A DNA stretch of 61,151 nt, counting the filler, from Basidiobolus ranarum (taxonomy: Eukaryota), in NCBI GenBank assembly GCA_040143965.1. It is 2 parts of 2 records of this genome, joined end to end, with 100 filler letters (N's around TTAATTAATTAA, not from the genome) between each part and the next. Parts side by side here need not be neighbours in the genome. Positions count along the whole stretch, not along the records: positions 30,673 to 61,151 come from JASJQH010000099.1; 1 more part is not named here. One strand, written 5' to 3'. Positions 44,797-46,931 of this stretch are shown here, piece after piece. The number at the start of each line of letters is the position of its first letter. Position 1 is the stretch's first letter. Under the pieces are notes generated by a model. The model was not told the origin of the DNA, made no database searches, and saw nothing but the letters and a program-made list of their open reading frames with translations. The translations under genes were made by a program, and so were the position numbers.

Positions 44797-46931
44797 ATGA
44801 AATTTGGTAACTTTATTACTGCCCGCAAAGTGAATTACCCAGAGGCGTGGATACCTTATACTCTTGACTATGTCTCCCTAAAGTCCTATATAAAACAAAA
44901 TATCGCTCCTGATTCCCTAGCTTTATCAAAGCTTACACCTGAGCAGCTTGAGTGGAATACGGATCCTACTAAAGAAAACTCTTACTCGAATCTTATTACC
45001 TCTCGCTTAGGGAGGCTTCAAACTTTAGTTGGCGAGTTTTTAAGCAAGCTAGACAAAGAAGTTAGCTCACTCAATGAATTTTATGTCAGCGAGACCGAAA
45101 GGATCGTTTCATATCGTCGCCAGAGTGAGGAAGATACTTCGACCAGTAAAGAGCTTCTTCAGTGCATTATCAAACTTGAGAGTTTTGTGTTACTTAACTA
45201 CACTGCTATAACCAAAATTTTGAAGAAACATGATAGGCACTCTGGCTTGAAAATCAGCGACTCCTATTTACTGCGCATTTCAAGCATGTCCTTTGTCCGG
45301 TCCGATAATCTTCTTACGTTAAAACGAGTTTTACTTAGAGACTTGGGTGAGAGCCCTATGAGCCCCTCTTGCACTTCTCCTGAGCTGATACTCTCCAAGA
45401 AGCTCTCCCCTGCAGAAAAAAAGAACTGGTTTCCCACTTCTGCTTTGTTACCCCATCAAAAGGTTCTTGTTTCGCTGACCGGACCTCACGGTACTGATAT
45501 CATCGGATGTATTCTTCAATGTGCTTCCACACACAACTGCGATATCGAAGACTTTATGTTTTCTCGATTGTATCATACCGCTACCTTTGGTGTTTTAATC
45601 ACACTTACGAATGATAATGTGGCAATTTTTCAGGATTTGGCTGAAGCGGCACGTAGATGGGATGGTACTTTATCTTTTGAGATTCAGGAGAATCATGGAC
45701 CTCTGCCAAAATCTATCGAGGAGGCTCCCTATCAAGATAGAGTTAAATATGCAGCAACGATTTTAAATCAGAATGGTCTCTCTGCCAAGTTTTTGTACGA
45801 GTGGACCCATTTACTACTAAAACATAAAATTTCAGTAGAAAAGATGGTGAGATTGAATGAGGGTCATGTCTCCTGTGCCGATTATAAACTTAGCGTTCCA
45901 AAGACTGTCGATTATGATTCCCTTCGTGTTCAATTATTCCAATTGAGTTTGAGTCACGGAACAGATGTGGCTATGCAACCGTATGATGTATTTCGTCGCA
46001 ACAAACGACTTGTTGTGTTTGATATGGATTCTACCTTAATTCAACAAGAAGTTATTGACGAAATTGCCAAACATGCTGGTGTAGAGGATCAAGTTGCCGT
46101 AAGTGAATTATATCGGAATCCTCATGTGAACAATAGCTTACTATATTTGTAACCTCAATTCCACAGACAATTACTGAAGCTGCTATGAATGGTGAAATCG
46201 ATTTCAAAGAGTCTCTACGCCGTCGTGTTGGTTTACTCAAGGGCACCTCTGTCTCAGTCATTGATACAGTAAAAGAGACTCTAACTTTCACTGAAGGAGC
46301 TCGTGTTCTTTGCAAGGCACTCAAGAAAATCGGCCTCAAGCTTGCGGTTATCTCTGGTGAGAAAGCGTAGATATCATGTAATGAAATATTTCTTATTAAT
46401 CACATGCACTCGCTCATTAAGGTGGTTTTATGCCGTTGGCCAATTATGTCAAAAACGAACTTGAACTTGATTATGCTTTTGCTAATCAACTCAAGGTATC
46501 TTCTGATGGCCTAACCCTAACTGGTGAAACTGTTGGGCCGATTGTAGATGGCCAACGTAAGGCCGAGTTATTGGAAGTTATTGCTCAAGCTGAGTCTGTA
46601 ACACTGGATCAGGTTTGTCGAACTTTTTACCAGCATCAACAAAATCATTTATTTATCGATATATCGACTGATACAGGTTATTGCTGTGGGCGATGGTGCC
46701 AACGATTTGTGGATGCTAGCAGCTGCTGGGCTGGGTATAGCCTTCAATGCCAAGCCGAGAGTTCAAGAGAGGGTAACGAAATTTTGTGTACACTAATCCA
46801 AATCACAAGGCAACTGTAAACTAATTGCCTCGTATTATTAGGCAAGCACTCGAATCAACCAAAAGAGTTTGAAATACGTTCTTCATTTGCTTGGATACAC
46901 AGATGAAGAATGTAGACAATTGTACGAGTAA
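44797..46931 (+). CDS. serB: SPX domain-ACT-ACT-phosphoserine phosphatase (SerB, HAD family) fusion, 5 exons
   Basis: Exons 44797-46098, 46167-46356, 46422-46612, 46677-46772 and 46842-46931. [57 protein letters not shown]-like: [87 protein letters not shown]. Confidence 0.93.

Follow-up and report, generated by a model that had tools for sequence, protein, structure and literature searches.

Introduction

The known fungal SPX proteins form the classes Vtc2-5, Pho81, Pho87/90/91, Syg1 and Gde1, with TTM, ankyrin-GDPD, SLC13 or EXS as output domains, and to our knowledge all characterised SPX proteins handle phosphate itself, by uptake, export, polyphosphate, PHO signalling or phosphodiester scavenging. 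This list of fungal classes is in part supported by published surveys and models (PMC8401276, PMC7381174). The ACT domains of bacterial SerB, a phosphoserine phosphatase (PSP), act in amino-acid feedback, as a sequence-only reading of the locus described here had noted and as is documented for mycobacteria (PMC4270767, PMC10564941). Here we describe a gene of Basidiobolus ranarum (assembly GCA_040143965.1), located in the part of the window that comes from JASJQH010000099.1, in which an SPX domain precedes two ACT domains and a predicted PSP domain of the SerB2 type. The window is the whole stretch of DNA that was analysed, 61,151 nucleotides with filler included, and all positions count along it.

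Two lines of earlier work frame the comparison. On the SPX side, the VTC complex is a membrane-embedded phosphate sink activated by inositol pyrophosphates (PP-InsPs) (PMC7381174; PMC10167327), and Gde1 is counted among the SPX proteins in fission-yeast work (PMC8749416, PMC12937664). On the SerB side, residues G18 and G108 of MtSerB2, one in the beta1-alpha1 turn of each ACT domain, are required for L-serine binding, and L-serine pushes the enzyme into an inactive higher oligomer (PMC4270767), an effect that has been refined to an oligomer equilibrium (PMC10564941).

SPX, ACT and PSP modules lie on one polypeptide

The gene is real, and its SPX, ACT-ACT and PSP modules are on one polypeptide. 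As listed in Table 1, it has five exons, separated by four introns of 64-69 nt with GT..AG borders throughout, and the spliced translation of 622 residues is a 100% match to P0002, deposited at NCBI as "Phosphoserine phosphatase [Basidiobolus ranarum]". Exon 1 is open over 1302 nt without interruption (434 residues), and a Pfam scan of it found SPX (PF03105; 39.1 bits, gathering cutoff 27.8) and ACT_6 (26.7 bits, cutoff 23). The same scan showed HAD motif I as a fragment below threshold, since the remaining domain is encoded by the later exons.

Homologues were collected by a word-index search, which gave 1002 proteins at E <= 0.001 among 6802 candidates. Among the best 120 of these, 119 carry PF03105 in their precomputed Pfam families. 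A homologue with all three parts comes from outside the fungal phyla, from the aphelid Paraphelidium tribonemae; its record name resembles a transcriptome assembly, so that it looks like one mRNA running across all three parts. The sequence-only reading had placed SPX, the ACT-like region and HAD motif I in one 1.3-kb exon, and the frame and the Pfam matches bear this out; every motif that it quoted was found as written, including MKFG at residues 1-4, YVSLKSYIK at 25-33, TKILKKHDR at 139-147 and FDMDST at 408-413. It had further held that the fusion is no gene-model artefact. We come to the same view from the single exon, the identical deposited protein, the SPX domain in nearly all of the best homologues and the transcriptome-derived aphelid protein. 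Recurrence in more than 120 homologues puts the three-part protein far beyond chance.

The same observations bear on whether the SPX part and the ACT-ACT-PSP part might mostly be separate products in vivo, made from an internal start or by processing within the linker, which we judge very unlikely. There is an in-frame Met within the linker, and the deposited homologues of Gigaspora (426 residues) and Entrophospora (437 residues) start just before ACT1; against these stand the three parts that share one continuous exon, the aphelid sequence assembled from a transcriptome with all of them, and a fusion kept across more than 120 homologues, which would be pointless if the parts were split. In the PSP-domain tree (35 rows, 221 columns), the Gigaspora protein, which has no SPX, groups as sister to that of Rhizophagus, which has it, with support of 97/93, and the short form of the Gigaspora protein would thus reflect a local loss or a truncated model.

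A second B. ranarum protein, P0004, has the same length of 622 residues, also bears SPX and is 90% identical to P0002 across the first 434 residues. B. ranarum seems to have two copies or haplotypes of the gene.

The SPX domain keeps its ligand residues

The profile match and the structure model together place the N-terminal 185 residues in the SPX family, with a predicted SPX fold. When the first 200 residues were compared with PDB sequences, the solved SPX domains of OsSPX2, Chaetomium Vtc4, OsSPX1, yeast Vtc4 and XPR1 were matched at E 3.8e-6 to 0.015. An AlphaFold2 model was built with 51 homologues as input (mean pLDDT 80.8, pTM 0.55), and in it the region consists of helices at residues 3-11, 16-21, 25-39, 63-109, 114-149 and 154-183. 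As expected for SPX, a hairpin of helices at the N-terminus packs against a bundle of long ones. By exhaustive structural comparison, residues 3-184 of the model matched the SPX domain of XPR1 (8tyu_B; Z 17.3, root-mean-square deviation (rmsd) 2.7 over 158 residues), and the SPX region further matched Vtc4 (Z 16.0 for 8i6v_E and 15.7), 5ijp_A, an SPX domain solved with InsP6 (Z 15.4), and rice SPX1 (7e40_D; Z 14.5). All four SPX matches (Z 14.5-17.3) are above the background of about 13 that this aligner gives for helical bundles. SPX came via the exhaustive aligner alone, and with the whole model as query the matches listed by Foldseek were only of the PSP, HAD and ACT types. The sequence-only reading had staked itself on the N-terminal 180 or so residues scoring as SPX, and they do so both in the Pfam scan and in the fold match.

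Seven SPX columns are invariant in 51/51 homologues, namely Y25, K29, K33, K140, K143, K144 and D146. The K140-x2-K143-K144-x2-R147 cluster aligned with the K-x2-KK-x2-K helix of the Vtc4 and OsSPX chains. When the set was widened to 126 members of the family whose SPX domain is nearly complete, Y25 was retained in 125, K29 in 123, K33 in 122 and each of K140, K143 and K144 in 125, and position 147 was R or K in 124. According to the SPX structures of 2016, these lysines and the Tyr and Lys of helix 2 reportedly make up the inositol-phosphate site. The ligand surface, which the sequence-only reading had called intact, is therefore present in its residues, in its alignment to the Vtc4 and OsSPX lysines and in nearly the whole family.

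The rest of the domain changes much faster. Mean identity between Basidiobolus and 48 other genera was 39% for SPX, 62-64% for the ACT domains and 82% for PSP. Since the ligand residues are fixed while the SPX scaffold drifts, the putative binding site appears to be under selection, and the pattern reads as a signature of selection at sequence level. This counts against the idea that SPX is an inherited structural appendage, serving folding, solubility or oligomerisation after its response to inositol phosphates was lost. Such an appendage would fit the fast evolution of SPX relative to PSP, and also its loss or degradation in several fungi, but 122-125 of the 126 members retain each of the ligand Tyr and Lys residues despite the drift around them, and in Saitoella and Neolecta, where SPX is being lost, the ligand residues are those that change. 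We consider the appendage quite unlikely.

The ACT-ACT-PSP body is of the SerB2 type

By sequence, the C-terminal 400 residues are a SerB2-type ACT-ACT-PSP module with every catalytic residue kept, and the protein is predicted to be a phosphoserine phosphatase, the enzyme that completes the phosphorylated serine pathway with the release of phosphate. The full protein scored 275.3 bits against the NCBIfam serB equivalog TIGR00338 (cutoff 144.15; residues 390-610), and residues 219-616 aligned end to end with positions 9-396 of the mycobacterial SerB 3p96 at E 6e-64. In the model, the helical residues 3-183 and a disordered stretch at 185-217 are followed by two beta-alpha-beta-beta-alpha-beta units at 222-296 and 315-395, and by a HAD domain, Rossmann-like and capped by helices, at 405-622. 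Residues 219-622 of the model matched M. avium SerB 3p96 (Z 35.8, 379 residues aligned), residues 316-621 matched Brucella SerB 7qpl (Z 32.2, rmsd 2.8 over 291 residues) and residues 401-611 matched M. jannaschii PSP 1f5s (Z 29.1, rmsd 1.8).

HAD motifs I-IV (DxDxT, S/T, K and GDxxxD) are complete, with D409/D411/T413, S497, K544 and D567/D571. All of these residues, as well as E418 and R454, are invariant in 51/51 homologues, and the presence of all PSP catalytic motifs after splicing, which had been read from the DNA, is thereby confirmed. E418 and R454 stand at positions that we take to be those of the substrate-contacting Glu and Arg in M. jannaschii PSP. In the ACT domains, invariance in 51/51 homologues extends to G229, H231, G232, T233 and D234 in the beta1-alpha1 turn of ACT1 and to G327 in that of ACT2. 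G229 aligned with the ligand-turn glycine of mycobacterial ACT1; G327 lies in the same turn of ACT2, three residues off the aligned position.

A different phosphomonoester substrate, either phosphoproteins or another metabolite, would make the protein an SPX-controlled phosphate scavenger like Gde1. HAD-IB enzymes may be promiscuous, and MtSerB2 is reported to affect host cell processes (PMC4270767). Here the serB equivalog cutoff was passed by a wide margin, the catalytic domain is 46-47% identical to M. jannaschii PSP with an rmsd of 1.3-1.8, and both E418 and R454 are invariant, all of which make another substrate rather improbable.

A variable linker joins SPX to the enzyme

The linker between SPX and ACT1 is Ser/Pro-rich and has a mean identity to other genera of 21%. 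Across the family, 139 of 161 linkers have an [ST]P site and 101 of 161 have [ST]-P-x-[LMIV]. The Mucorales linkers have S-P-x-M-x-R-S-R-S in common, and that of B. ranarum has S-P-E-L, then K-K-L-S-P. The Pho85-Pho80 kinase prefers proline-directed S-P-x-I/L sites, and as a speculation, phosphorylation of Pho85-Pho80-like sites in the linker might be a third input.

A long, disordered and poorly conserved linker fits a tethered independent module, and SPX could then be a ligand-dependent docking module that recruits a partner, sets a location or holds a regulator, with no tuning of catalysis; the link to phosphate would be spatial or regulatory and not allosteric. Stand-alone plant SPX proteins act through ligand-dependent partner binding (7e40; PMC11528361), and moonlighting roles are reported for MtSerB2 (PMC10564941). 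None of the results obtained here points to a partner, and it is the same enzyme in every fusion, which argues that the enzyme is the target. Docking in place of catalytic control is in our view unlikely. Contact prediction between SPX (1-185) and ACT-ACT-PSP (219-622) gave a score of 0.00, which, being without controls, is neutral either way.

The fusion is the standard form in early-diverging fungi

The SPX-PSP family comprises aphelids and at least six fungal phyla, and the fusion is no one-off: early-diverging fungi have it as the standard form of this enzyme. Members were found in Zoopagomycota (Basidiobolus, Thamnocephalis, Syncephalis, Coemansia, Smittium), in Mucoromycota (Glomeromycotina, Mortierellomycotina, Mucoromycotina and Endogonales; e.g. 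Rhizophagus, Mortierella, Mucor), in Chytridiomycota (Spizellomyces, Gaertneriomyces, Rhizophlyctis, Powellomyces and others), in Neocallimastigomycota (Piromyces), in Blastocladiomycota (Catenaria, Sorochytrium) and, with a decayed SPX, in the Taphrinomycotina Saitoella and Neolecta of Ascomycota. The lone exception among the best 120 homologues, from Blakeslea, was found to have SPX when the family hidden Markov model (HMM) was used. By our count, 24 of the 120 have SPX and ACT_6 only; these proteins of 431-549 residues were all predicted from JGI, Logan or ENA assemblies and are probably calls truncated near the first intron.

An exhaustive HMMER scan gave 8241 matches at E <= 0.001, and the best 150 cluster representatives were examined. 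The family HMM found SPX in 16 of these 150, and the remaining representatives are ACT-ACT-PSP proteins of about 400 residues, short PSPs of about 300 residues, two-PSP proteins of 768-1664 residues and a few longer one-offs. The longer one-offs without SPX by the family HMM include those from Pyropia (592 residues), Lineolata (517 residues) and Sanchytrium (652 residues). Matches in the ESM Atlas were only to the protein's own fungal clusters and to bacterial SerB clusters.

In the PSP-domain tree, the backbone lacks resolution, with 12 of 32 inner branches open and with Sanchytrium and Lineolata on long branches, and the order of gain and loss is not derivable from it. That SPX-PSP is ancestral in Fungi and was repeatedly lost is based on its distribution, not on tree topology.

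Two further architectures came up in these searches. The Sanchytrium tribonematis protein (P0169) has 194 residues ahead of its ACT-ACT-PSP part with no family-HMM or Pfam match to SPX, and this N-terminus could be a very diverged SPX or another domain. Two PSP-type HAD domains, mostly with an ACT piece ahead of the second (PSP-...-ACT-PSP), occur in proteins of 607-1664 residues (P0135, P0136, P0138, P0139, P0143, P0145, P0149-P0154, P0156, P0158, P0159, P0161, P0165, P0174 and P0219). The stronger of the PSP matches is the first one in P0151, and the two proteins of this kind with source names are from protist transcriptome collections (eukprot, mmetsp). PSP-...-ACT-PSP may be another unexplored SerB architecture.

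A putative phosphate input to serine synthesis

On balance, the domain evidence slightly favours modulation of this phosphatase by ligand binding to its SPX domain. SPX would bind InsP6 or PP-InsPs, whose level would report cytosolic phosphate, and via the linker it would shift the ACT-mediated equilibrium of the phosphatase between oligomers or between open and closed forms. An amino acid, most likely L-serine, would be reported by the ACT domains, and both inputs would act on the balance of oligomers or conformations on which PSP activity depends, as in SerB2.

The preferred direction is that ligand-bound SPX would restrain the enzyme, and that ligand-free SPX, under phosphate starvation, would release it. 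This inhibitory sign is the weakest step of the proposal and is offered only tentatively. It is preferred because serine synthesis is a net phosphate source and because, in the INPHORS scheme, sources go down and sinks go up at plentiful phosphate. The last step of serine synthesis frees inorganic phosphate and a rise of its flux is predicted under phosphate limitation (PMC7864628), and ligand-bound SPX may activate or inhibit depending on whether its partner is a sink or a source (INPHORS; PMC7381174). The opposite sign would be reasonable as well: the synthesis of serine, one-carbon units and phospholipids might be licensed at plentiful phosphate, by analogy with ligand activation in VTC.

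Several observations weigh against control of the enzyme by SPX, or against the preferred sign. XPR1 and VTC are the best studied among SPX enzymes and transporters, and XPR1 is activated by its SPX ligand. VTC is likewise activated by the SPX ligand, the opposite of the sign preferred here (PMC7381174). In the model, inter-domain confidence is low (pTM 0.55, linker pLDDT <50) and no contact is predicted between SPX and the catalytic domain. The Saitoella SPX carries K29T and K33Q and scores 22 bits, under the Pfam cutoff; that of Neolecta is without its N-terminal half; and no SPX was found in the sequences deposited for Batrachochytrium, Cladochytrium, Amoeboaphelidium, Sanchytrium, Lineolata (Pezizomycotina) and Gigaspora. 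Since several lineages have lost or degraded SPX, control by it is dispensable. B. ranarum may also have a second PSP gene without SPX.

In its widest form, the proposal that SPX tunes the phosphatase would make the ancestral fungal PSP, already present in aphelids, a serine valve gated directly by PP-InsPs, opened as PP-InsP falls in phosphate starvation and shut by ACT-bound serine. Once open, the valve would drain glycolysis into serine and free phosphate on the way. It would be the first SPX controller of amino-acid and one-carbon metabolism, as distinct from transport or storage of phosphate or PHO signalling, and the loss of SPX in most Dikarya would be a rewiring of phosphate-carbon coupling. 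We regard this wider picture as possible but doubtful.

Locus and neighbouring genes

The genes around the SPX-PSP gene are ordinary housekeeping genes without visible functional link to it. Its convergent downstream neighbour encodes an arginase, and the other large open reading frames in the window are Sla1-like, eIF2A, CwfJ, G6PD, an ABC transporter, anoctamin, a sphingolipid desaturase, a kinase and an APP1 phosphatidate phosphatase. A TGACTCA heptamer, presumably a site of the general amino-acid-control type, lies upstream of the gene. With 8 found and 11 expected, this heptamer shows no enrichment in the window, and CACGTG or CACGTT did not occur from 42919 to the start codon; we give neither result any weight as evidence.

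Table 1 Positions of the SPX-ACT-ACT-PSP gene, its parts and nearby features in the window
Feature	Position	Strand	Basis or remark
SPX-ACT-ACT-PSP gene, five exons	44797-46931	+	ATG 44797-44799, TAA 46929-46931
Exon 1 (434 codons): SPX, linker, ACT1, ACT2, HAD motif I in one open frame	44797-46098	+	
SPX domain, residues 1-185	44797-45351	+	Pfam, PDB sequence matches, model fold
Y25-x3-K29-x3-K33, SPX helix 2, N-terminal part of putative ligand surface	44869-44895	+	Invariant in 51/51
K140-x2-K143-K144-x2-R147 lysine cluster, SPX helix 4	45214-45237	+	Aligns with Vtc4 and OsSPX
Disordered Ser/Pro-rich linker, residues 186-218	45352-45450	+	pLDDT <50 at residues 185-217
ACT1, residues 219-300, beta-alpha-beta-beta-alpha-beta	45451-45696	+	ACT_6 26.7 bits, 3p96 alignment, model
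ACT2, residues 312-400, beta-alpha-beta-beta-alpha-beta	45730-45996	+	Full-length alignment to mycobacterial SerB ACT2, model
HAD motif I FDMDST (nucleophile D409, D411)	46018-46035	+	
Exon 2: PSP cap helices (R454), motif II strand with S497-G at its end	46167-46356	+	
Exon 3: PSP core including motif III K544	46422-46612	+	
Exon 4: motif IV GDGAND (D567, D571)	46677-46772	+	Pfam Hydrolase_3, 27 bits
Exon 5: C-terminal helices and TAA stop	46842-46931	+	
TGACTCA heptamer	44508-44514		290 bp upstream of the start codon
Arginase C-terminal-half exon	47503-48066	-	Pfam Arginase 1.1e-48

Discussion

The SPX-ACT-ACT-PSP architecture is real, ancient and conserved, and it is apparently uncharacterised. 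The sequence-only reading knew of no characterised SPX-SerB. This stands as far as description goes: we found no paper on the architecture in the full-text literature, a body outside which most subscription journals and supplements lie. SPX-PSP is not mentioned in the available parts of surveys of mycorrhizal-fungal and eukaryotic SPX proteins (PMC8401276; PMC11528361), and the word 'phosphoserine' appears nowhere in a 2025 review of fungal phosphate metabolism (PMC12653687). It does not stand for the sequences themselves, which are public, automatically annotated and widespread in early-diverging fungi. The public records carry the plain name 'phosphoserine phosphatase', with SPX already among their precomputed Pfam families. 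The novelty is thus one of missing characterisation, not of missing sequence records, and it is that of a new output class of SPX protein. The domains found besides SPX belong to the ACT_6 and HAD families only, with none of the outputs of the known classes among them, and the protein therefore belongs to no described fungal SPX class.

If SPX does control the enzyme, inositol-pyrophosphate signalling would reach central carbon and nitrogen metabolism, by way of a domain that a core enzyme of amino-acid biosynthesis has retained over hundreds of millions of years. Such control would moreover offer a molecular entry point to the idea that serine synthesis supplies phosphate when phosphate is limiting (PMC7864628). 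The family is present in arbuscular mycorrhizal fungi, whose symbiosis rests on phosphate economy, as well as in Mucorales and Basidiobolus, and its absence from yeast may account for its being overlooked. The question is tractable at the bench: the protein is soluble, a simple assay by colour is at hand, and its bacterial relative, which lacks SPX, is well studied.

Comparison with known systems

Among the enzymes, mycobacterial SerB2 (3p96, 5is2, 5jlp) resembles this protein in its two ACT domains with the ligand-turn glycine, in having all HAD motifs and in 36-38% identity. It differs in being bacterial and in having neither SPX nor linker; moreover, regulation by L-serine and oligomerisation was measured in SerB2, whereas it is inferred here. 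The short PSPs, that is, the E. coli/Brucella-type SerB of about 300-325 residues (7qpl, 4eze) and yeast Ser2 (309 residues), share the catalytic domain and one ACT-like N-domain, but they have no ACT1 or SPX, and nothing in them points to control by phosphate status.

Among the SPX proteins, plant SPX1/2 gave the best sequence matches of the SPX part (7d3y, E 3.8e-6; 7e40, E 4e-5), but they have no fused output and sequester the transcription factor PHR. VTC, whose Vtc4 subunit is SPX-TTM, is likewise an enzyme governed by SPX, and it matches in SPX fold and in the aligned K-x2-KK-x2-K helix; because PSP would be a soluble phosphate source and VTC is a sink, the opposite sign of control is expected here. 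Gde1, the yeast SPX-ankyrin-GDPD glycerophosphodiesterase, is the known example of a soluble hydrolase with SPX and a link to phosphate economy, but it has another catalytic fold and substrate and a role in scavenging rather than in amino-acid biosynthesis. In logic, Gde1 and VTC are the nearest analogues of the B. ranarum protein.

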